From contig CAZCKS010000002.1 in NCBI GenBank assembly GCA_964499325.1, positions 59 to 64,058 of the forward strand: a stretch of 64,000 bases of DNA. Direction: 5' to 3'. Positions 570 through 12,083 of the stretch are shown here, piece after piece. The notes beneath the pieces were generated by a model that had not been told where the DNA came from, ran no database searches, and saw only the letters and a program-made list of their open reading frames with translations. A program made the position numbers and the translations under genes. The first letter of the stretch is position 1. Each line of letters begins with the position of its first letter. This DNA is from an uncultured Bacteroides sp. Lineage in GTDB: Bacteria > Bacillota > Clostridia > Christensenellales > CAG-917.

Positions 570-1598
570 TTATCTCAATTTCGCAAGTTCGTATATAAGT
601 TTTTCCGTCTTTTCCCAACCGAGGCAGGGGTCAGTAATGGACTTTCCGTACACACCGCCGTCACAAGATTGTGCGCCGTCCTCGATGTAAGACTCTATCA
701 TAAGCCCTTTTACGAGTTTGCGAATATCGCTTGAATGGCGAGTGCTGTGCATTATCTCTTTTGCAATACGAGGTTGCTCGTCATATTTTTTGGCAGAGTT
801 AGAGTGGTTTGTATCAACAATAACGGCAGGGTTTTCGAGGTCGGAATCCGCATACATGTGGCACAGTGTTTTTAAATCCTCATAGTGATAGTTCGGGATT
901 GTTTGTCCATATCTGTCCACCGAGCCTCGAAGTATTGCGTGCGTAAGGCTGTTACCCTTGCTGTTGACTTCCCAGCCCGAATAGACAAAGGTATGCGGAC
1001 GCTGTCCTGCGTGAATGGAGTTCATCATAACTGCCAAGTCTCCGCTGGTGGGGTTCTTCATTCCCACGGGTATATCCAATCCGCTTGCGGTAAGACGGTG
1101 AAATTGGTTTTCCACCGACCTTGCGCCCACCGCAACATAGGAAAGCACGTCGGATAGGTAAAAATGATTTTCGGGATAAAGCATTTCATCTGCGCAAGAA
1201 AATCCCGTTTCCGCAAGTGCTTTTATATGCAATTTGCGTATTGCGATAAGCCCCTTAAGCATATTCTCTTGCGAGTGCGGATCAGGTTGGTGTAGCATTC
1301 CCTTATATCCGTCGCCCGTTGTGCGTGGTTTGTTTGTGTAAATTCGAGGTATTATGACAATCTCGTCCTTCACGACGTTTTGCACTCTACGCAGTCTTGA
1401 GATATAATCGAGCACAGCGTCCTCTCTGTCTGCCGAACACGGACCTATAACCAAAACCAATCTATCGTCCTTGCCTTCAAAAACGTTTTTAAGCGTTTCG
1501 TCCGTTTGTTTTTTTAGCAATGCAAGATCATCATCCAATGGGTACATTGCTTTAATCTCTTGCAGTGTGGGCAGTTTTCTTTTAAATTCCATATTCAT
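570..1598 (-). CDS. aroG: 3-deoxy-7-phosphoheptulonate (DAHP) synthase, class I-alpha (AroF/G/H-like)
   Basis: The translation contains VIGPCS, NKPRTT and GARSVENQ. The layout is colinear with E. coli AroG-type enzymes. The start overlaps the tyrA stop (TAATG). Confidence 0.9.
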   Translation of the reverse strand: MNMEFKRKLPTLQEIKAMYPLDDDLALLKKQTDETLKNVFEGKDDRLVLVIGPCSADREDAVLDYISRLRRVQNVVKDEIVIIPRIYTNKPRTTGDGYKGMLHQPDPHSQENMLKGLIAIRKLHIKALAETGFSCADEMLYPENHFYLSDVLSYVAVGARSVENQFHRLTASGLDIPVGMKNPTSGDLAVMMNSIHAGQRPHTFVYSGWEVNSKGNSLTHAILRGSVDRYGQTIPNYHYEDLKTLCHMYADSDLENPAVIVDTNHSNSAKKYDEQPRIAKEIMHSTRHSSDIRKLVKGLMIESYIEDGAQSCDGGVYGKSITDPCLGWEKTEKLIYELAKLR

Positions 1599-2476
1599 TA
1601 TTTCTTCTCCTCTGCGTCTTTGTCGAATGCGCTTCGTCTTTGAGTGGACAATCTCATCATTTGTCGAATATTATCAATATTATCCTCTTTTATATCTTGT
1701 TTGAGCATATCGAAACGTTTTTCAAAAAGTTCCATTTGCGCTATCAACTGCTCTTTATTGGCAAGGAACAATTCGCTCCACATCTCGTCGTTGATTTTTG
1801 CTATACGAGTGAGGTCTCTAAATGAGTCTCCCGTATACTCCGCAAGATGCTCGTGGTCATCCTTGCACACCATAAGGGACACAGCAATGCAGTGCGTAAG
1901 GTGCGACAAAAATCCTACCGTCTCGTCATGCTTTTCAGGAGACAATTCACCAATCCTTTCAAAACCAAGTTCTCTACCAAGCGACTTGCACGCGTCTATC
2001 CCCTCTTGCGTATTCTTTTGCGTTGGAGTGACAATATAGTTTGCGCCCTTGAAGATGTCTGCGTTTGCATTGCGCACACCGCTCGTTTCTCTACCAGCCA
2101 TCGGGTGTGCTCCTACAAATTCCAAGTCCTCTCTCAACACGCTCTGCACTCTTTCTACAAGGCTTCCTTTTACGCCCGTAACGTCGGTGAGCAACGCTCC
2201 GCTCTTTATATAGGATTGATACTTCTCGATCCACTCGATAAGCACGTGCGGATAAAGTGCAAACACAATCAAATCATATTGTGACACAAAGTCATTATCA
2301 ACGCTTGTGCGCCCCTCGCTTATCCACCCCTTTTGCAAGGCAAAGTCAATGCTTTCTTCACAAGCGTCTATTGCGCCTATTTTATAGCCTTTTTTCGAGA
2401 GTGCCTGGGCATAACTACCGCCTATAAGTCCCAATCCTACAATCAATATTTTGCTGTTAGTATCAAATCTCATCAA
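1598..2476 (-). CDS. tyrA: prephenate dehydrogenase
   Basis: The N-terminus has the Rossmann motif ILIVGLGLIGGSYA and the region FVGAHPMAG is conserved. The gene sits inside the aro operon. Confidence 0.9.
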   Translation of the reverse strand: MMRFDTNSKILIVGLGLIGGSYAQALSKKGYKIGAIDACEESIDFALQKGWISEGRTSVDNDFVSQYDLIVFALYPHVLIEWIEKYQSYIKSGALLTDVTGVKGSLVERVQSVLREDLEFVGAHPMAGRETSGVRNANADIFKGANYIVTPTQKNTQEGIDACKSLGRELGFERIGELSPEKHDETVGFLSHLTHCIAVSLMVCKDDHEHLAEYTGDSFRDLTRIAKINDEMWSELFLANKEQLIAQMELFEKRFDMLKQDIKEDNIDNIRQMMRLSTQRRSAFDKDAEEKK

Positions 2477-3671
2477 TCTTCACTCCCAGTTTTTTCATAT
2501 CCTCAAAAAAGTGCGGATAACTCTTATTTACCGCTTCCGCCCCTTTTAACACACCGCCCGTTTTGCACAGCAAAACGGCGTTTGCCATAACAATCCTATG
2601 GTCCTTGTGTCCGTCTATCGGCTCGTCGGGATGTTGCAGTTTGTTTGCGCAAACAAGCACTTCATTGTCCAAAACACGCACGTTAACACCGTATTTTGCA
2701 AGTTCTTGCGCCATTGCACCGCCCCTGTCGCTTTCCTTAATTTTGAGCCGAGAAGTGCCGACAAAATGTCCTCCTTTCCTTGCGGATGCCACCGCAAAAA
2801 GCACGGGAGCAAGGTCGGGACAATCGGACAAGTCAAGCACTTGGTTGCCCATATCAAGGCTACAAAGCATCTTTTTAATTACCTTGTCGCCCTGTTTGCT
2901 ATTGTCATCGAGTCCTATAACTTTTACATCCTCTCCCATTGCTTGCATTGCAAGAAAAAACGCACCGTTAGACCAATCGCCCTCAACAAAATATTCTCCG
3001 CCTTTAAACGTACTGTTGCCCTTGATGGTAAATATGTTTTTGTCTATCTTCTCAACACTCACTCCGCATTTTTTCATAACGTCGAGGGTTATATCTATAT
3101 AACTTCTGCTTTCAACAGGCTCTGTTACAACAAGCCTGCTATCCCCCTCGACGACAGAGAGTGCAAACAAAAGCCCCGTGATATATTGACTGCTGACATT
3201 GCCCTTGATTGTATAATCTCCGCTGTGCAATTTGCCGTCAACCACTATTGTATCACTGCCTATATTAAGGTGTATACCGCATGCGTCAAACACGCTTTTA
3301 TACTCGCCTATACCACGACAAACAAGTCTCTCACTGCCCTTAAAAATCACGTTTTTTGCGCCGAGTGCAAGCGCAATGGGTAAGAAAAATCGCAAGGTAC
3401 TTCCGCTCTCTCTGCAATCGAAAACGATATTTTCAAGCGGTTTAAAATCGCATGGCGAAACCTTTGCAATATCTCCATCAAGCAAGACATCTGCCCCCAA
3501 CGCCTTTGCGCACGACAAAGTGGCGAGCATATCCTCGCTGGTAAAAATGCCGTGTATTACGCTATTTCCTCTTGCAAGAGCACTGGCAATCAACAGCCTG
3601 TGCGCAACGCTTTTTGAAGGCGGTGCAATCACGTTTCCGCTTGCGTTTGAGGGGGTAAATTTCAAGTCCAT
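2463..3671 (-). CDS. aroA: 3-phosphoshikimate 1-carboxyvinyltransferase (EPSP synthase)
   Basis: The translation contains PSKSVAHRLLIASALA and ESGSTLRF. It is 402 aa and overlaps tyrA by 14 nt. Confidence 0.93.
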   Translation of the reverse strand: MDLKFTPSNASGNVIAPPSKSVAHRLLIASALARGNSVIHGIFTSEDMLATLSCAKALGADVLLDGDIAKVSPCDFKPLENIVFDCRESGSTLRFFLPIALALGAKNVIFKGSERLVCRGIGEYKSVFDACGIHLNIGSDTIVVDGKLHSGDYTIKGNVSSQYITGLLFALSVVEGDSRLVVTEPVESRSYIDITLDVMKKCGVSVEKIDKNIFTIKGNSTFKGGEYFVEGDWSNGAFFLAMQAMGEDVKVIGLDDNSKQGDKVIKKMLCSLDMGNQVLDLSDCPDLAPVLFAVASARKGGHFVGTSRLKIKESDRGGAMAQELAKYGVNVRVLDNEVLVCANKLQHPDEPIDGHKDHRIVMANAVLLCKTGGVLKGAEAVNKSYPHFFEDMKKLGVKIDEI

Positions 3672-4108
3672 TATTTGCCTATTTTATCCTTTAATATATC
3701 CATCGCCTCAACGTATCCGTTTAGTCCGTGCCCCTTTATCGTCGCAAGCGCAACGTCTTTGACATAACTTATCTTGCGATATTCCTCTCTTTCGTCAACA
3801 TCGGAGATATGCACTTCGACAGTGGGGATTGCAACGCCCTTTATCGCGTCGGCAATGGCAACGCTTGTGTGCGTGTATCCTGCGGGATTTATAACGATAC
3901 CGTCAATCCCGTCAAAATACGCCTTCTGTATTTCGTCTATAATCGCGCCCTCGTGATTTGATTGGAAGAAACGTACTTCGACATCAATTTTCTCTGCGTG
4001 ATTTTGCACAATTTCCACAAGGTCGTTATACGTCTTTTTCCCATAAATATCAGGCTCTCTTATGCCGAGCATATTTATATTGGGACCGTTCAAAACCAGT
4101 ATTTTCAT
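3671..4108 (-). CDS. aroQ: type II 3-dehydroquinate dehydratase
   Basis: The N-terminus MKILVLNGPNINMLGIREPDIYG is typical of the family. It is 145 aa with a TAATG overlap with aroA. Confidence 0.95.
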   Translation of the reverse strand: MKILVLNGPNINMLGIREPDIYGKKTYNDLVEIVQNHAEKIDVEVRFFQSNHEGAIIDEIQKAYFDGIDGIVINPAGYTHTSVAIADAIKGVAIPTVEVHISDVDEREEYRKISYVKDVALATIKGHGLNGYVEAMDILKDKIGK

Positions 4109-5337
4109 ATTTTGCTCCTTATCTCTTTCAATGTATCGTCTATGTCTGCGTTGTTGCTTACTGCAACATCGGCACAGGCAGAATATATCGGATACCGCAC
4201 TTTATAAAGTTTTTCAAGCGACAACGTATCTTTTGACAACGGTCTGTCGTCTGTGGGAGTAAGTAGGCGAATATCTCTGTCCAAAAACAAAATTATTCCG
4301 TTGCTTTTAAGCATTGCCACGTTTTGTTCATCGAGCACTGTTCCACCGCCCGTGGCAATTATTGCGCCTCTCAATGTTGAAACCTCTTTTACGACGTCTT
4401 TCTCTATTTTTCTAAACTCTTTTTCGCCGAATTTTGCAAATATTTGCGGTATTTTAAGTCCCGTCTTGATTCCTATTTGCTCATCGGTGTCCACGTATTG
4501 CTTGTTTAACTCTCTTGCGAGCATTTTGCCCACAGTGCTTTTGCCCGACGATGGCATACCTATAAGCACGACATTTCGCTTATCTTGGAGAATTTTGTCG
4601 AACACATTGTCGATTTGAGATATTTCGACCTTTTTCGACATAAAGAGTGCGCTTGCATACACCGCTTGTGCAACGAGCATATAAAGTCCTCCACATGCCT
4701 TTATTCCAAGCGTTTCCGCCTCCAAAACGAGCCTTGTGCGCAACGGGTTGTAAATCGCATCGACAACCGCCTCACATTTAACGAATTTCGACAAATTTAT
4801 GGGGCATTCGTCAACATTCGGATACATCCCCGACGGAGTCGTGTTGACGATTATTTGTGCGTCAACATGTTTTTCATACGCCTCTTCATACGTCACCGCA
4901 CCGCCCTTACCGCTCCTGGACACCTTGATTATTTCGCTTGCTCCGAGGCTTTTCAGCACTGCGTTTGCGGTATTGCTTGTTCCGCCCGTACCGAGAATAA
5001 GTGCCTTTTTGCCTTCTGCAATTATGCCGTTTTTCACAAACAGTGCGCGCATTCCGTCAAAATCCGTATTATATCCGCAAAGCACGCCGTCCTTATTCAC
5101 GATAGTATTTACCGCACCGATTGCACGCGCACTCTCGTCCACCTTGTCAAGATACGGTATGACCGTCTGTTTGTAAGGTATCGTAACGTTTATTCCCTTA
5201 AACTCTCTATCTTTCAAGAACGTGCAAACATCGCCCTCGTCAAGTTCTTTCAACTCATACTCATAAGGGGCAATAAGTGCATGTATTTCTTTGGAATAAC
5301 TGTGTCCCAAAGGTTTTCCGATAAGTCCGTATTTCAT
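4105..5337 (-). CDS. aroE: fused shikimate dehydrogenase / shikimate kinase
   Basis: The N-terminal half has the AroE motif GLIGKPLGHSYS. The C-terminal 170 aa have the shikimate-kinase Walker A VVLIGMPSSGKSTVGKMLA. The ORF-track start at 5343 is TTG, and the first ATG is at 5337. Confidence 0.88.
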   Translation of the reverse strand: MKYGLIGKPLGHSYSKEIHALIAPYEYELKELDEGDVCTFLKDREFKGINVTIPYKQTVIPYLDKVDESARAIGAVNTIVNKDGVLCGYNTDFDGMRALFVKNGIIAEGKKALILGTGGTSNTANAVLKSLGASEIIKVSRSGKGGAVTYEEAYEKHVDAQIIVNTTPSGMYPNVDECPINLSKFVKCEAVVDAIYNPLRTRLVLEAETLGIKACGGLYMLVAQAVYASALFMSKKVEISQIDNVFDKILQDKRNVVLIGMPSSGKSTVGKMLARELNKQYVDTDEQIGIKTGLKIPQIFAKFGEKEFRKIEKDVVKEVSTLRGAIIATGGGTVLDEQNVAMLKSNGIILFLDRDIRLLTPTDDRPLSKDTLSLEKLYKVRYPIYSACADVAVSNNADIDDTLKEIRSKI

Positions 5338-5468
5338 TTGCAACTTGTTAAATTATGCCTTATTTATCGGCGTTTTTGTTTTGCCGTTATATTGCGTTTT
5401 TATTGTGTTTTTATCACGTTTTTATTGCACATTTTCTTGCGCTGTTCCGCAAAATTATGCGAACCGTT

Positions 5469-6566
5469 TTAGTCTTTTATTCCGTTTACAAACACATCCG
5501 TGCCATATCTTTGCGCAAGCATATCGCACACGCAAAGCGCGCCCACCGCATTTATCACAGGGCAAATACGGCGCACGATTGCAGGGTCGTGTCTGCCCTT
5601 GATTTGCAATTTTATCTCTTCGTTTTTCAAGAAATTTACGCTCGCTTGCTCTTTATAAATTGACGGAGTGGGCTTGATTGCGCACTTGAACACCACAGGC
5701 ATTCCGTTGGTTATTCCGCCGTTAATACCTCCGTTGTTGTTAGTCTTTGTATAGACATTTTCTCCGTCAGTATAGAAGCAGTCGTTTGCCTCGCTTCCGC
5801 GCATTTTGCTCATTGCAAAACCTTCGCCAAACTCAACGCCCTTTATTCCGCCTATGCCGAAAAGCGCATGCGACAAGACGCTTTCAACGCTGTCAAAGAA
5901 AGGCTCGCCCACTCCCGACGGAATACCCACGATTGCCGTTTGCGTAATGCCACCGACACTGTCGCCGTCCTCTGCGGCACGTGCGATTTGCTCTTTCATC
6001 TGCGCTCCACGCTCCTCGTCAATTGTCGGGAATTTGTCGCAATCAAGACTTAAAACCTCGTTTTGTATATCATTAAACGGCAAATCTTGCACATTTGCAC
6101 ATTCCAGGATATGCGTGCCGACGTTTATACCAAGCCCTTTTAGAGCGTCTTGAAGTATTGCACCCACAGCAACTATGCCGGCAGTGACACGTCCCGAAAA
6201 GTGCCCTCCGCCTCTATAATCCTCAAAGCCGTGATACTTGCAATATGCGCTGAAATCGGCGTGAGAAGGTCTTGCCTCGCCGTACACATAATCACCGCTT
6301 TTTGTATTTTCGTTGGGTATGATTATGCAAATCGGCGTACCCGTCGTCTTGCCGTTGAACACACCGCTGACAATCTTGAAATTGTCATTTTCACGTCTTG
6401 CGGTATCGATTTTTTCCTTGGGCGCGCGACGAGAAAGAGCGTTTATAATGCTCTGCTCATTGACGTCAAGTCCTGCGCACAAGCCATCCAAAACGGCTCC
6501 CACACACTCTCCGTGGCTCTCACCGAAAACGGTGAGAGTAATGCTGTTTCCAAAAGTGTTTTTCAT
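5469..6566 (-). CDS. aroC: chorismate synthase
   Basis: The translation contains FGNSITLTVFGESHG and GRHDPAIV. It is 365 aa. Confidence 0.95.
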   Translation of the reverse strand: MKNTFGNSITLTVFGESHGECVGAVLDGLCAGLDVNEQSIINALSRRAPKEKIDTARRENDNFKIVSGVFNGKTTGTPICIIIPNENTKSGDYVYGEARPSHADFSAYCKYHGFEDYRGGGHFSGRVTAGIVAVGAILQDALKGLGINVGTHILECANVQDLPFNDIQNEVLSLDCDKFPTIDEERGAQMKEQIARAAEDGDSVGGITQTAIVGIPSGVGEPFFDSVESVLSHALFGIGGIKGVEFGEGFAMSKMRGSEANDCFYTDGENVYTKTNNNGGINGGITNGMPVVFKCAIKPTPSIYKEQASVNFLKNEEIKLQIKGRHDPAIVRRICPVINAVGALCVCDMLAQRYGTDVFVNGIKD

Positions 6567-7573
6567 AATTTTTCCACCTTTTCGAGAATTTGCTCCGCGT
6601 TGAGATTTTCAAATTGAAAACTGCCGATTTTATCCACCGTTACAACGCTTATTTTATCCTTGTCTGCCTTTTTATCGTGGACGATATATTGTCCCAGTTC
6701 TTCCTTATCAAATGTGTATCGCGTATCGATTTTGCACTTATCAAAAAGGCTACGCACTCTCTCGCGCACGCTCGGCTCGCACATCGGAAGCATGCCGATT
6801 GCAACGCATTCTCCGTGCAAAAGGGCACCGTTCTCTTTTGCCTCTATCGCATGTCCTATCGTATGCCCGAAATTCAGCACTTTGCGAAGTCCGCACTCTC
6901 TTTCATCTTGCTCGACAACGCTCTTTTTTATCGTTAGCGATTTTTGCACGATAGACTGTATGTCCTCTTTCAAATCTGCGGAATTTTCTATCAATTCAAA
7001 CAATTCCGCATCGCAGGTGCATGCCATTTTAATTGCCTCGACAAGCCCTTCTTTGAATATTCTCTCGTCAAGCGTAGAGAGTACATCAACGTCAACAACA
7101 ACTTTCTTTGGCTGATAGAATGCGCCGACGATGTTCTTTACACCTTCAAAGTCTATTGCGGTTTTTCCACCGATAGAGGAGTCAACCTGTGCAAGCAATG
7201 TAGTAGGCACGTTGTAAAAATCCACACCTCGCATATAGCAAGACGCAACAAAGCCGGACAAATCCCCCACAACACCGCCACCGACGGCAACTACGCAATC
7301 TTTTCTTGAAAAAGAATTGTCAAGCATAAGCGACAACAGTGCCTTAAAATTGTCAAAATTCTTGCTGTTTTCGCCTTGTTTAAGCACGCAAAGTAATCCT
7401 TCTTTGCACTGTGAAAGGACTTTTTGCGCATACTCGCTCGGCACGCCGTCATCAGTGACGACAAGCACCTTACGATTGAGGTCGAGATATTCGCCGATGT
7501 TGTTAAGCGCGCCTTTTTCAATCACGACGTCATAGGTTGAAGTTGCATGTTTTATGGGTAAAATCATAGTCAT
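6563..7573 (-). CDS. aroB: 3-dehydroquinate synthase
   Basis: The translation contains VAVGGGVVGDLSGFVAS and GHTIGHAIE. The start was trimmed to the ATG at 7573, which overlaps the pheA stop (ATGA). Confidence 0.92.
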   Translation of the reverse strand: MTMILPIKHATSTYDVVIEKGALNNIGEYLDLNRKVLVVTDDGVPSEYAQKVLSQCKEGLLCVLKQGENSKNFDNFKALLSLMLDNSFSRKDCVVAVGGGVVGDLSGFVASCYMRGVDFYNVPTTLLAQVDSSIGGKTAIDFEGVKNIVGAFYQPKKVVVDVDVLSTLDERIFKEGLVEAIKMACTCDAELFELIENSADLKEDIQSIVQKSLTIKKSVVEQDERECGLRKVLNFGHTIGHAIEAKENGALLHGECVAIGMLPMCEPSVRERVRSLFDKCKIDTRYTFDKEELGQYIVHDKKADKDKISVVTVDKIGSFQFENLNAEQILEKVEKL

Positions 7574-8673
7574 TTCTCCGCATTGTCTTGGAAATAACTT
7601 CCTACCATTTTGAGTTTTGCGCATATTGCGGAAAGTTCTTGCAGAAGGTCTTTTCCGTTTTGCGTATGCACGTTGCCCTCTGCCTCAATATAGAAATAGT
7701 AGTTCCACTGCAAATCTTTCATAGGACGAGAGCGCAAGGAGCGCATATTAAAATTGTGCGCACCGATTATATTTAGTGCACTTGCAAGTGCGCCGGATTC
7801 GTTCTGCACCGTGAAAACCAAAATGAAATTTTCACCGTCCCTCTTTGTCAAATTAGCAGGCTTGCTCGCCACTCTTGAGAAAGACGCAAATCTTGTCGTA
7901 TTGTTCTTTGCGTCGTTGATTTGAGCGTCGATTATTTCAAGCCCGAAAATGTTTGCCGTCTCGTCGGAGGCGATTGCTCCTATAGTGACATCGCCTGCAT
8001 TTTTGACATACTCCGCAGCAAGCGCAGTGTTGGAGTACGCTCTTGTCTCATATCCCTTTTCTCTCAAATATTCTCCGCATTGCGCAAGTGCTTGCGGATG
8101 GCTTACGACAGTTTTAATACTCTCGGCACTCGCCCTTGCCACGCCTATAAGATTGTGCTCGATAGGCACTTCGATAACTTGATTTATGTGCAAACTGCCG
8201 TTGAAGGTAAGGTCCATAACCTCGCCCACTTCGCCTGCATAACTGTTTTCGAGCGGAAGAACGGCACAGTCATACAGTCCCTTCTCAACGCCCTCATAAG
8301 CCTCTTGGAATGTGGAGCAGGCAATATATTCCGCCTCGGGGAACATTCTCTTTGCCGCAATATACGCAAATGCCCCCGCTATGCCCGAATACGCTACCCT
8401 CATCTTGCGCAACATCGACGATTGATAAGCGCACGACACCTCTATTGCGCTCTTGACAAAATCCTGATAATAGGGTTGAATTTGCGCGTCCTTGATATAC
8501 TCGGAGTTTTTCTTTATCACTTCCGCCTCACGCACTTCGTCACGCACGGAAAGCCCGTTTTCTTTCTTGTACAGGGCAATGTCTTTGCACACTTCCATTC
8601 TCTTTTCAAACAGGAGTGCCATCTGCTTATCGATTTCGTTGATTTCCTTTCTTGACAAAACAATGTCTTTCAT
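7570..8673 (-). CDS. pheA: bifunctional chorismate mutase / prephenate dehydratase (P-protein)
   Basis: An N-terminal chorismate-mutase helix region (EINEIDKQMALLFEKRMEV) is followed by a PDT domain (MRVAYSGIAGAFAY, NNTTRFA) and an ACT-like C-terminus. The ATG at 8673 has an AAGAGG SD 6 nt upstream. Confidence 0.9.
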   Translation of the reverse strand: MKDIVLSRKEINEIDKQMALLFEKRMEVCKDIALYKKENGLSVRDEVREAEVIKKNSEYIKDAQIQPYYQDFVKSAIEVSCAYQSSMLRKMRVAYSGIAGAFAYIAAKRMFPEAEYIACSTFQEAYEGVEKGLYDCAVLPLENSYAGEVGEVMDLTFNGSLHINQVIEVPIEHNLIGVARASAESIKTVVSHPQALAQCGEYLREKGYETRAYSNTALAAEYVKNAGDVTIGAIASDETANIFGLEIIDAQINDAKNNTTRFASFSRVASKPANLTKRDGENFILVFTVQNESGALASALNIIGAHNFNMRSLRSRPMKDLQWNYYFYIEAEGNVHTQNGKDLLQELSAICAKLKMVGSYFQDNAEK

Positions 8674-8806
8674 ACGTACCTCTTTGCTTCCATTATAATC
8701 AAAATTGATTATAAATCCACATATTTTGCACAAATCGTCTGCTTTTTGCACAGATTTATATATATTTTATTGAAAATCTAAGATTTTCAAGCGGTTTTTG
8801 GCTATT

Positions 8807-8832
8807 AAAAAAGCGATTCGCAAAGGAATCGC
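8807..8832 (-). terminator. intrinsic terminator (attenuator) in the aro operon leader
   Basis: On the minus strand the stem GCGATTC / GAATCGC has a 6-nt loop and is followed by U6 (plus-strand A-run 8807-8812). It lies between a consensus promoter and the pheA start. Confidence 0.7.
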
Positions 8833-8859
8833 TCATTTTTGTCGGTATAGACAAAATGC

Positions 8860-8925
8860 TCAACTTCCTTTGCGGAGTGAGTTAGAGCCAAAATAAAAAT
8901 AAAAGTAATCGCGTGCAAACATCAT
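8860..8925 (-). CDS. putative Tyr/Phe-rich leader peptide MMFARDYFYFYFGSNSLRKGS
   Basis: This 21-codon ORF is below the ORF-track threshold. A GGGG SD (8933-8936) lies 7 nt before the ATG. Six consecutive aromatic codons TAC TTT TAT TTT TAT TTT occupy 8890-8907. The ORF lies upstream of the terminator and the aromatic operon. Confidence 0.55.
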   Translation of the reverse strand: MMFARDYFYFYFGSNSLRKGS

Positions 8926-8956
8926 TTTTGCGCCCCTTGTTACATTTTATATTAAA

Positions 8957-8985
8957 ACTATAAGCCCAACCGTGCGTTTTGTCAA
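8957..8985 (-). promoter_or_regulatory. sigma-70-type promoter of the aro leader
   Basis: On the minus strand: TTGACA (8980-8985), a 17-nt spacer, then TATAGT (8957-8962). Confidence 0.6.
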
Positions 8986-9118
8986 CTTTTATTTTTTGCA
9001 CACAGTTGGGCATACACCCTGCTCATTGTCGTTCCGAGCGGATCCGGGAAATAGAGCCATAGATGCACACTATTCAATAATTTGTCTAAAATTCATATCA
9101 AATAATCTTTTTGCTTAA

Positions 9119-10141
9119 TTATACGTCAATATTGCAATTTGAAAACATCAACAACATGTCGATTCCTTTGCTTTGCGACTCAACATGCATTTCTCCGTAT
9201 TGACACACGGGAAGTTCTCTGTTATCCGAAAATCTTTTGTCGGGACCGCCCGATGCGTTGACATACTTCCATGTGTGTGCAACGATTTGCGCATCGGAAG
9301 GCACTTTTTCATCTTCAACAAACTTTGTCGTAGTAAAATATGTTTGAACGTCGGAATAATCTACCGCACCGACTCTCAATTTCTTTATAACAAAAAGTTT
9401 GTCAGGCAAAAAGATGTATTTTGCGTTACCGCACTTAAACCATACGGCATCTTGATCGCTTTTGAACGGGAACGGCAATTTTACATTTGATTTTGCGCCT
9501 TTCCTCGACACCAAATTTTTCGCACCAGCAGTGTATTTTGTGTCTGACACACGCTTTGATTTGTCTATATACCAAATTTGTTGGCTATTTGCAATCTGTT
9601 TCAATGGCGCCATGTGTTTGTCAATTTCGGCAGACAATTCTTCATCAACATCATAATTCAATTTGATATAACAGCATGTTCTGACAACAATTTTTAGAAT
9701 GACGCCAACGCCTGCGATAATAAAAAGCCACTTGTTATAGACAAGTCCCGTAAATATGCCTGCAACAATAATTAGCAGCGCAATAAAATTTAATACTAAC
9801 ACAAAACTTGCAGATTTTGTCAACGACTCCAACCCCGACGACACCATGTTTTTAACATCTCCGCTTTCATAAGCCTTAACATCTACAACATTGACATCGC
9901 CGTTGTTCGTGACGACATTTTGTTCTGTATCAGGCGATAACTTATGCTTTTTGCCGTGTTTTGAGTCTTTCACATACGAGATGCCGGTACCGGGAATAGA
10001 TACCGTTCGACGAGTTCCGCCGCTCGATTTCTTTGAAATGCGATACCCCTTTGTGCCCCAACTGTAACCAATGCCGGATTTGCTCAAATTAATATTGAAT
10101 CCGTCACCGAGTCTAATGCTCTTTCTAAAACGCAACCCCAT
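9119..10141 (-). CDS. DUF4236-type membrane protein (hypothetical)
   Basis: The ATG at 10141 has a GGAGG SD. The N-terminus MGLRFRKSIRLGDGFNINLSKSGIGYSWGTKGYRIS is characteristic of DUF4236. Two hydrophobic helices sit mid-protein. The ORF-track extension to 10300 lacks support. Confidence 0.6.
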   Translation of the reverse strand: MGLRFRKSIRLGDGFNINLSKSGIGYSWGTKGYRISKKSSGGTRRTVSIPGTGISYVKDSKHGKKHKLSPDTEQNVVTNNGDVNVVDVKAYESGDVKNMVSSGLESLTKSASFVLVLNFIALLIIVAGIFTGLVYNKWLFIIAGVGVILKIVVRTCCYIKLNYDVDEELSAEIDKHMAPLKQIANSQQIWYIDKSKRVSDTKYTAGAKNLVSRKGAKSNVKLPFPFKSDQDAVWFKCGNAKYIFLPDKLFVIKKLRVGAVDYSDVQTYFTTTKFVEDEKVPSDAQIVAHTWKYVNASGGPDKRFSDNRELPVCQYGEMHVESQSKGIDMLLMFSNCNIDV

Positions 10142-10544
10142 AAATAGCCTCCACAAATAAAAAATGCGCCGGTCGAAGCCAGCGCACCAAAACGCAAACT
10201 CCAACTGTCGCCAAACAATTCTTACGTAGTACGGATAACTGCACCACCATAAGCGGAGTTTGCAATTTTGCAAAAACCTGTGGTGTATGCAGAAAAACAC
10301 TTGCTAAAAGCAAATAAAAAGTCCGTACTCGTTGCTGTGGACATAAGAATTGTTTGGCATTCATAGTGTAACACACTTAATCAGAGAAATCAACGCCAAA
10401 ATTATTAAAGAAATACTAATTGTAAATTTCGACATTAAGCGCATTGTTAACAATAGGCTATTACGCTCGTCGAATTTTTCGACCGTGCTAAAAATGACGT
10501 TTTCACAATTATGCATAAGCAAAATGCAATGGGTTTTTCACAAC

Positions 10545-10649: not shown

Positions 10650-12083
10650 TTATTTCTTGACGGGAGGCAAGACACAGATCGCATCCATAATGTTCTTTTC
10701 AAGAGCCTCTCTGCCGTACTTGTCAACCTCGGCTTTGTTCTTTTCGCCGTGTGTGAGACAGCCTGCTCCGCCTATGCAACCGCCGTTGCATGCCATACCC
10801 TCGATGAAGTTTGCGTCAAGCACGTTCTTGGACTTTTTGAGCAAGGCAAGTTTGCACTCCTCTATGCCGTCGCAAGCGCATGCTTTGAGTTCAAAATCAA
10901 GATTTTGCTCTTTGAGAGATTGTTTGAGAGAATCGCTGAGTCCACCGCTACGAGCAAATATTCTTCCGAAATATGACGCATTATCAAGCACGTCCTCTTC
11001 AAGAGATGTGATTTCAAAGTCCTTGCTGTCAAAGAGTGCTTGCAACTCCTCAAACGTCAACACGCTGTCAACATACGGGCGCACTTTCTCGTCTTGGAAT
11101 TCCATCTTCTTTGCCGTGCAAGGTCCTATAAACACAACCTTTGCTCCGGGAGTGGTATCCTTGATGTATTTTGCAAGCGTACCCATCGGAGAGAGATTGT
11201 GTGAGATATGCTTTTCAAGCGCAGGGAAATTCTTTTTGACATACGCCACAAAAGCAGGACAGCAAGAACTTGTCAAAAAACCTTTTTCGGCGAGTTCTCT
11301 TCCCTCTTCCAAAAGCACCATATCTGCGCCGAGCGCCGCCTCAATTACCGTGAAAAAGCCAAGTTTCTTAAGTCCTGTGATGACTTGCCCGAGTTTGGCA
11401 TAAGTGAATTGGCTGGAAATGGAAGGCGCAACAATCGCATACATCTTGTAGTTGGTGTTGTTCTCGCTCTTCTTAATCATATCGATGACGTCAAGGATAT
11501 ACGACTTGTCGGAAATAGCACCCCACGGACATTGATACACGCACGCACCGCACGCAATGCACTTGTCATTGTCGATAACTGCAGCGTGATCGTCGCCCAT
11601 AGTGATTGCCTTGACTTTGCAAGCATTTTCGCAAGGACGTTTTTGATTGTGAATTGCGCTGTACGGGCACACCTTTGCGCACGCACCACACTCTCTGCAC
11701 TTGGATTTGTCAATGTGCGCCACATGATTGTGGTCAAACGTGATTGCGCCGAATTTGCACACGTCCTCACAACGGTGAGCAAGACAGCCTCTGCATGCGC
11801 CTGACACTTCGTAACCGCCCATAGGGCACTCATCGCAAGCGATGTCTATAACCTCGATTACGTTGGGATTGGACTTATCTCCGCCCATAGCGAGTTTGAC
11901 TCTGTCAAGCAAAATCGCTCTTTCCTTGTATACGCAACAACGCATTGTCGGCTCCTTACCGGGAACAATGCGCTTGGGAATGTCAATAAGATTCTCCTCA
12001 AGAGTGCCTGCCCACGCTTCGCGCGCGACCTCTCTTAAAACCTTATATTTAAGATGTTGAACTTTGGTATCGAATATTCTCAT
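10650..12083 (-). CDS. monomeric [FeFe]-hydrogenase homologue (group B-like)
   Basis: There are two 4Fe-4S ferredoxin motifs (CRECGACAKVCP, CIACGACVYQCP). H-cluster-type motifs are TSSCCPAF, GPCTAKKME and EGMACNGGCIGGAGC. Confidence 0.85.
   Translation of the reverse strand: MRIFDTKVQHLKYKVLREVAREAWAGTLEENLIDIPKRIVPGKEPTMRCCVYKERAILLDRVKLAMGGDKSNPNVIEVIDIACDECPMGGYEVSGACRGCLAHRCEDVCKFGAITFDHNHVAHIDKSKCRECGACAKVCPYSAIHNQKRPCENACKVKAITMGDDHAAVIDNDKCIACGACVYQCPWGAISDKSYILDVIDMIKKSENNTNYKMYAIVAPSISSQFTYAKLGQVITGLKKLGFFTVIEAALGADMVLLEEGRELAEKGFLTSSCCPAFVAYVKKNFPALEKHISHNLSPMGTLAKYIKDTTPGAKVVFIGPCTAKKMEFQDEKVRPYVDSVLTFEELQALFDSKDFEITSLEEDVLDNASYFGRIFARSGGLSDSLKQSLKEQNLDFELKACACDGIEECKLALLKKSKNVLDANFIEGMACNGGCIGGAGCLTHGEKNKAEVDKYGREALEKNIMDAICVLPPVKK

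Follow-up and report, generated by a model that had tools for sequence, protein, structure and literature searches.

Attenuation of transcription through the translation of a leader peptide is the classic mechanism of pheL-pheA, pheM-pheST and trpL, and in Firmicutes aromatic and aminoacyl-tRNA genes are usually controlled by the T-box, which binds uncharged tRNA directly and involves no open reading frame (ORF). Here we analyze a 64,000-nucleotide (64-kb) stretch of contig CAZCKS010000002.1, assigned to the Christensenellales and called the window throughout, in which an eight-gene aromatic amino-acid operon on the minus strand (pheA-aroB-aroC-aroEK-aroQ-aroA-tyrA-DAHP synthase) is preceded by a short leader ORF rich in Phe and Tyr codons. 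On the strength of sequence comparison and folding models, we consider it very probable that this leader is a ribosome-mediated Phe/Tyr leader-peptide transcription attenuator, which would gate transcription from an upstream promoter, P1, into the operon.

Among the closest described systems, the Escherichia coli pheL-pheA and pheM-pheST leaders combine a Phe-rich short ORF with a terminator opposed by an antiterminator (PMC3082878, PMC11802643). The window resembles pheL-pheA in that its leader ORF precedes a chorismate mutase/prephenate dehydratase gene and in that a ribosome completing the ORF would cover the 5' strand of the antiterminator; it differs from pheL and pheM in matching neither in sequence or structure, in using Tyr as frequently as Phe, in its eight-gene target and in its clostridial host. 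The aroR leader of Corynebacterium glutamicum (Phe-Tyr-Phe), upstream of aroF, has been tested experimentally, and according to the account in PMC11802643 (citing Neshat et al. 2014) ribosome stalling there controls a DAHP-synthase operon. By that account, mixed aromatic codons in the leader peptide and ribosome stalling are common to aroR and our element, whereas aroR is actinobacterial with three aromatic codons and the leaders described here have runs of 5-13 Phe/Tyr codons, a separation made from the description alone. In Acholeplasma and environmental sequences, uORFC-13-1 upstream of aroF has a predicted promoter, a ribosome-binding site and an upstream ORF with a Phe-encoding U-run (Brewer et al. 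2021, PMC8632094); an intrinsic terminator follows directly, and an additional base-paired element is noted (PMC8632094). It too sets a Phe-coding upstream ORF and a terminator ahead of a shikimate-pathway gene but, compared by description only, it precedes aroF and not pheA, has 24 representatives and is characterized by 'at least one' Phe codon.

Leader-peptide attenuation is already on record in Firmicutes, with a Leu/phe leader in Lactococcus lactis (RF01743, PMC2864571), His leaders ahead of hisZ/hisS in the Bacillus cereus group and C. difficile (PMC2965389, PMC4833913) and, in S. aureus, a Leu-rich leader of ilv-leu (PMC5794164). The present element is therefore not the first of its class in the phylum, and it differs from these in amino-acid specificity, genes and taxa. 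The original prediction had set the window against a background of T-box, TRAP or protein-repressor control in Firmicutes. Its reading of the mechanism stands, and the implied lack of precedent is softened by these systems and by the aromatic leader peptides above. With the T-box the element shares a 5'-leader position, a terminator-versus-antiterminator output and tRNA charging as the signal, but here charging would be read via the leader ORF.

At the gathering threshold, Rfam 15 gave no family anywhere in the 64-kb window (no tRNA, riboswitch or T-box) and no match in 20 representative loci of relatives, T-box, Phe_leader and Leu/phe leader included, and membership in T-box (RF00230), Phe_leader or Leu/phe leader (RF01743) was accordingly rejected. 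A cmscan of positions 8500-9300 at E ≤10 gave seven chance-level matches with no leader family among them, and NCBIfam and Pfam at E ≤10 gave no relevant family for eight leader peptides including that of the window. A profile of the longer leader peptides found in relatives (see below) retrieved only 38 clusters from a 5.8-billion-protein collection, named at most 'hypothetical protein'. The family is thus new within a known mechanistic class, being absent from Rfam, Pfam, NCBIfam and the literature searched. What sets it apart is that Tyr codons weigh as much as Phe codons, that the whole pathway would be controlled as one operon, that it occurs in this host clade and that its long form has a conserved hairpin within the ORF.

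If the attenuator acts as proposed, it gives a concrete picture of how abundant, mostly uncultured gut Clostridia regulate aromatic amino-acid synthesis, a pathway feeding host-relevant aromatic metabolites; classic attenuation, not a T-box, would be set over the whole shikimate, Phe and Tyr pathway as a single unit. The covariance model and some 60 examples assembled here could be the starting point for an Rfam family and for better annotation of the leader ORFs, which are at present unnamed or miscalled, and the element could serve synthetic biology as a natural Tyr/Phe-responsive switch.

The leader and its operon in the window

The features of the element and its target are these:

8957 to 8985, minus strand: promoter P1, TTGACA (8985-8980), a 17-nt spacer and TATAGT (8962-8957), 11 of 12 consensus positions
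8933 to 8936, minus strand: Shine-Dalgarno-like GGGG, 7 nt ahead of the leader ATG at 8925, read from the sequence
8860 to 8925, minus strand: leader ORF of 21 codons plus TGA, product MMFARDYFYFYFGSNSLRKGS, read from the sequence and its translation
8890 to 8907, minus strand: six Tyr/Phe codons in succession, proposed as the regulatory run, TAC TTT TAT TTT TAT TTT, with Phe3 in addition
8865 to 8875, minus strand: 5' strand of the antiterminator, (C)CGCAAAGGAA, formed by the final sense codons ahead of the leader stop
8819 to 8828, minus strand: 3' strand of the antiterminator, TTCCTTTGCG, overlapping the terminator
8807 to 8834, minus strand: intrinsic terminator, stem 8834-8826 / 8819-8811 (GAGCGATTC-CTTTGC-GAATCGCTT) of 9 pairs, with U6 at 8812-8807
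570 to 8673, minus strand: operon of pheA, aroB, aroC, an aroE-aroK fusion, aroQ, aroA, tyrA and DAHP synthase, all eight ORFs assigned by Pfam
8673 to 7570, minus strand: pheA, chorismate mutase-prephenate dehydratase-ACT (Pfam)
1598 to 570, minus strand: DAHP synthase gene, the last of the operon (Pfam)

The eight operon ORFs are contiguous or overlapping, all on the minus strand, and cover the full common pathway together with the Phe and Tyr branches, the aminotransferase excepted. P1 is the top promoter-like site within 8000-10500 in a promoter scan, relatives keep TTGACAAA...TATAGT/TATATT upstream of the leader ORF, and we infer that transcription starts near 8950. CGCAAAGGAA (8874-8865) is the exact 10-bp complement of TTCCTTTGCG (8828-8819), a stretch that covers the terminator loop plus 3 nt of its 5' arm and a single nucleotide, the first, of its 3' arm. 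The terminator has a predicted stability of -11.2 kcal/mol, and the strongest duplex between the end of the ORF and the terminator 5' half reaches -17.6 kcal/mol (z = -4.6, with 0 of 200 shuffles as good); the leader RNA as a whole is more stable than shuffled sequence (z = -2.6 and -3.0). Promoter, Shine-Dalgarno sequence, ATG, ORF, terminator with U6 and 10-bp alternative pairing, all named in the original prediction, lie on the minus strand at the coordinates it gave.

These features suggest the following course of events. RNA polymerase would start near 8950 and a ribosome would load at the ATG at 8925. With Tyr-tRNA and Phe-tRNA ample, the ribosome would pass the six Tyr/Phe codons and reach the TGA at 8862, where it would cover CGCAAAGGAA; the terminator 8834-8811 with its U6 would then form, and transcription would end near 8807. 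With either charged tRNA scarce, the ribosome would stall within 8907-8890, leaving about 15 nt between its 3' edge and the antiterminator strand. The freed CGCAAAGGAA would pair with TTCCTTTGCG once this is transcribed, so that the terminator would lose its loop and some of its 5' arm to the duplex and polymerase would read through into pheA.

To model the ribosome's position, the window leader was folded with a ribosome footprint kept unpaired at each codon in turn. With the A site at codons 5-14, which include all of the Tyr/Phe codons, the probability of the terminator is at most 0.05 and that of the antiterminator about 0.66; with the A site at codons 16-22, including the stop, the terminator probability is 1.0. 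The ribosome-free leader gives the terminator a probability of 0.61, and the switch is robust to three footprint sizes. The window accordingly holds a promoter and a short ORF with a ribosome-binding site, a cluster of codons cognate to an operon that contains pheA and tyrA, a terminator ahead of the first structural gene and, in silico, a mutually exclusive antiterminator that is free under a stalled ribosome and masked by the terminating one.

In the minimum free energy structure the leader forms the terminator together with a hairpin termed 1:2 (8888-8858), and in the centroid structure it forms the antiterminator, and therefore the two states are close in energy. Two further hairpins are predicted by folding:

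8858 to 8888, minus strand: 1:2 hairpin, GCUC.AACU...UCC / GGA AGUU GAGC, from the minimum free energy fold
8837 to 8856, minus strand: spacer hairpin UUUUGUC-UAUACC-GACAAAA, lying between antiterminator strand and terminator

The first, which has a counterpart in the relative L021, is predicted to tie up some of the antiterminator strand as long as there is no ribosome close by. The second is preserved in the relative L081 by a double change, U-A to G.U.

Conservation of the leader in gut Clostridia

Relatives were taken from 80 genome loci (numbered with the prefix L) having PheA homologues at 55-81% identity, in Christensenellales and Oscillospirales-type gut Clostridia; the homologues point to uncultured gut Clostridia, and the best-named matches are Christensenella or Christensenellales metagenome-assembled genomes. 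In 56 of the 80 loci a mini-ORF with Phe/Tyr codons densely clustered toward its C-terminal end is found 80-320 nt ahead of pheA; all 56 start with ATG, and 52 have a Shine-Dalgarno-like motif before it. At six further loci the leader lies farther upstream, and a gene for a DUF554 membrane protein or a GNAT gene intervenes before pheA; the element therefore marks the head of the operon and not pheA itself. The Phe/Tyr leader thus heads the pheA operon in 62 of the 80 loci, while the gene upstream of the leader differs among them.

This synteny bears on the view that the window presents a chance combination, in which the terminator belongs to the upstream DUF4236 gene, or to an independent small gene or small RNA, and has nothing to do with pheA. 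Counting every frame of both strands, the 64 kb has a single window of seven codons with at least six Phe, Tyr or Trp, that of the leader run, where shuffled sequence gives about 0.3, and the hairpin resembles a terminator on the plus strand too, as such a view would allow. It is contradicted by the way the element accompanies the operon head in 62 of 80 loci whatever gene lies upstream. L081 has no DUF4236 gene at all, with a hydrogenase gene upstream instead; a consensus promoter lies between the element and the upstream gene; and a covariance model of the element (R1, below) matches the window exactly once. What decides against chance is conservation in relatives, and we regard a fortuitous arrangement as extremely improbable.

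Several observations indicate that the leader ORF is coding. The Phe/Tyr frame is open in 56 of 56 leaders, and the +1 and +2 frames over the same span are open in only 3 and 7. Across the family the runs comprise 177 TTT, 141 TAT, 74 TAC and 17 TTC codons; Tyr is about as common as Phe, C-ending codons are tolerated, and TAC accounts for 74 of 215 Tyr codons. Runs span 5-13 Phe/Tyr codons, some of them nearly all Tyr (e.g., YYYYYFF in L027); in the operon genes the two residues account for 7.0% of codons. Phe and Tyr are exchanged between relatives (e.g., RFYESAFYFYF vs RYFEGAYYFYF), and L081, the closest relative found (pheA 89% identical), has a synonymous TAT>TAC change within the run and others at Arg and Ser. 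From such swaps and synonymous changes it follows that amino-acid identity is kept, beyond mere U-richness. Leaders have a median length of 53 codons, and the 21-codon form of the window, the shortest type, occurs also in L021 (MSRYSFNFYFYFGSHSLRKGS) and L081 (MTFARGYFYFYFGSNSLRKGR).

The terminator was detected in 41 of the 56 leader loci, in nearly all of them 16-41 nt from the ORF end. The covariance model R1, built from relatives with the terminator structure only, matches the window once (8804-8896, minus strand, E = 2e-9) and 38 loci at E <2e-5. Its terminator helix covaries, with 20 compensatory cells equaled in 0 of 500 shuffles, on an alignment that was fitted to this helix and hence favors it. 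The antiterminator core helix is 92.9% paired over 39 aligned loci, against 48-69% for slid partners, and all nine pairs together are 90% paired on a MAFFT alignment. In both the MAFFT and the covariance-model alignments, short-stem terminators of the window type stand one column out of register, and per-column counts are too low for the pairing in these rows. Locus by locus, the antiterminator duplex has a median z of -2.8 against shuffles, with p ≤0.01 in 20 of 38 loci. Both of its strands are conserved in sequence (CCGCAAAGGA and UCCUUUGCG), and covariation is weak for this reason, with isolated compensatory cases in L061 (CGUAAAGG/CCUUUACG) and L050 (CGAAAAGG/CCUUUUC). Some leaders translate CCGCAAAGGA as RKG and others as PQR, and therefore it is conserved as RNA, not as peptide. 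Of what the original prediction had expected in related genomes, the aromatic mini-ORF (62 of 80), the compensatory changes in the terminator and, in nearly all loci, the complementarity of the antiterminator strands were found; covariation of the antiterminator was weak.

The sequence conservation of the antiterminator strands, and of CCGCAAAGGA across reading frames together with the terminator loop UUUGC, might also be expected of a riboswitch or a protein- or tRNA-binding leader whose U/A-rich tract would produce the Phe/Tyr 'ORF' incidentally, and the long leaders, with a strongly covarying 9-bp hairpin and a U-rich tract resembling a pause or terminator signal, have the same flavor. Such an RNA would not account for the coding evidence: ATG in 56 of 56 leaders, the Shine-Dalgarno-like motif in 52, a Phe/Tyr frame open throughout with the other frames mostly closed, the share of TAC among Tyr codons, and the Phe/Tyr swaps and synonymous changes. 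The spacing from run to antiterminator moreover fits a ribosome footprint, and the window leader, at only about 140 nt, has no complex conserved fold and, in the Rfam searches described above, no T-box or other match. We therefore think a ligand- or protein-binding leader very unlikely.

Several features of the family stand apart from these comparisons. Long-form leaders (about 53 codons; loci L023-L080, e.g., L030, L038, L066) have a 9-bp hairpin inside the ORF, GCAGUACGM-UUUUWU-KCGUACUGC, which encodes AVRF[FY][AS]YC and directly precedes the Phe/Tyr run; the third position of the Arg codon covaries with the first position of the Ala/Ser codon (AT 16, CG 11, TG 3). This hairpin, which is not present in the 21-codon leader of the window, may be a pause or translation-coupling element. 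In L029, L043, L071 and L076, and probably also L040 and L073, the leader is followed by a gene for a 235-residue DUF554 membrane protein and then by pheA, and the shared regulation suggests a role for DUF554 in aromatic amino-acid transport, a functional hint for these proteins. The leader and pheA differ in their apparent phylogeny: comparing window positions 8680-9000, the window and L021 are 74-84% identical in the leader region and 67% in pheA, the window and L001 are 52-61% and 76% identical, respectively, and L003 (pheA 80% identical in protein and 75% in nucleotides) has no leader. Such conflict, as far as the alignments go, suggests turnover or exchange of the regulatory region.

Ribosome position and a proposed kinetic decision

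A number of observations weigh against reading the element as an attenuator of this kind. The Phe/Tyr run by itself is not very rare, and it is not compelling alone because shuffled windows already give about 0.3 per 64 kb. The terminator, by the detection criteria used, was not found in 15 of the 56 leaders. For the antiterminator helix, the MAFFT alignment gives mildly positive covariation and a larger model-derived alignment (A4) gives none that is significant against shuffles, and the claim of covariation was dropped on that control. The one tested mixed Phe-Tyr-Phe leader, aroR, is described in PMC11802643 (citing Neshat 2014) as showing no effect of Tyr availability. A conserved TATAAT and palindrome downstream of the terminator may permit attenuator-independent transcription, judging from their sequence. 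Finally, when the footprint folding was applied at equilibrium to relatives, the terminator prevailed at any ribosome position in 33 of 38 loci, and a switch was obtained in only 5, the window, L021 and L009 among them.

The scarcity of an equilibrium switch is explained by the stronger terminators of most relatives, and it follows that for most of the family the decision must be kinetic, as in classic attenuators. Equilibrium folding was accordingly abandoned as a general description of the switch, and a nascent-transcript model was used instead, in which the terminator 3' arm is treated as unmade. In this model the probability that the terminator 5' arm is sequestered is 0.83 with the ribosome in the Phe/Tyr window and 0.39 with the ribosome at the stop, and 35 of the 38 loci change in the expected direction (Wilcoxon p = 1e-9).

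The geometry of the 38 loci is consistent with such a decision. Between the last run codon and the nucleotide at which pairing of the antiterminator strand begins, the median distance is 17.5 nt (interquartile range 12-18), while the stop codon follows the run at distances of 15 to 51 nt, and in all 38 loci the antiterminator strand begins within the last 12 codons or no more than 3 nt past the stop. Such spacing fits a stalled ribosome that has to halt right before the strand and one completing the ORF that has to cover it. The logic given in the original prediction, termination by a ribosome that reaches the stop and read-through by one stalled on the Tyr/Phe codons, is supported by the footprint folding of the window, the Phe/Tyr mini-ORF with a terminator in 62 of 80 relatives and the conserved geometry.

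A broader proposal goes further than the attenuator itself, and we put it forward tentatively, rating its chances at somewhat below even. The element may be a dual sensor, in which the charging of Tyr-tRNA as well as Phe-tRNA sets read-through, and which, to our knowledge from a limited literature search, might be the first leader-peptide attenuator to read tyrosine; it may be widespread in gut Christensenellales and Oscillospirales; in the form of about 53 codons, the 9-bp hairpin within the ORF and the U-rich Phe/Tyr tract may act as a pause- or terminator-like checkpoint that is opened by translation; and the DUF554 proteins may be aromatic amino-acid transporters.

A putative second promoter and the surroundings of the operon

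Two further features lie downstream of the attenuator terminator, about 41 nt upstream of the pheA ATG:

8692 to 8720, minus strand: putative promoter P2, GTGGAT (8720-8715), a 17-nt spacer and TATAAT (8697-8692)
8693 to 8714, minus strand: perfect palindrome TTATAATCAATTTTGATTATAA (TTATAATCA-ATTT-TGATTATAA), filling the P2 spacer and -10 box

From its sequence this is probably a second promoter with an operator, and if so the attenuator governs only transcripts derived from P1. The original prediction had the leader controlling all eight genes; its gating of the pheA operon holds, and 'all' is possibly too strong given the conserved TATAAT and palindrome. A stronger version of the argument accepts the attenuator as real and has the operon driven mainly from P2 by way of the palindromic operator and a DNA-binding repressor, the leader merely trimming P1 transcripts. 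The palindrome (TTATAATCA-N4-TGATTATAA) occurs once in the window against 0.04 expected, and in some 20 of the closest loci, the leaderless L003 and L017 among them, it stays about 41 nt ahead of the pheA ATG. Its right half always keeps TATAAT, a promoter scan calls TGGACT-16-TATAAT at this place in L003, and L081 has a symmetric double change (TCA..TGA to TCG..CGA). On the other hand, the -35 of the window, GTGGAT, matches at only 2 of 6 positions and the scan calls no promoter there, no regulator was identified, and the symmetry of the palindrome is degraded in L006-L011 and L022. Mainly P2-driven expression is thus a serious contender to which we would give a little less than an even chance, and being compatible with the attenuator it is no replacement for it. 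The palindrome at 8693-8714 was also considered as an RNA hairpin, for which the evidence is mixed, with one symmetric double change against asymmetric decay elsewhere.

Returning to the attenuator's own surroundings, the DUF4236 gene (window 9119-10300, minus strand) stands between the leader and an Fe-only hydrogenase gene (10650-12083). It is absent in the closest relatives, L081 and L082, where the hydrogenase gene is the immediate upstream neighbor, and from this comparison it is likely to be an insertion in the present genome.

The sequence TGTGCAAAA is present in nine copies in the window where 1.6 are expected. Three of these, at 8994-9002, 8744-8752 and 8724-8732 (minus strand), flank both putative pheA promoters, and the others are at 2561, 4002, 27366, 29187, 34624 and 36496. 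The motif may bind a transcription factor or act as an UP-like element, a hint of another regulator.

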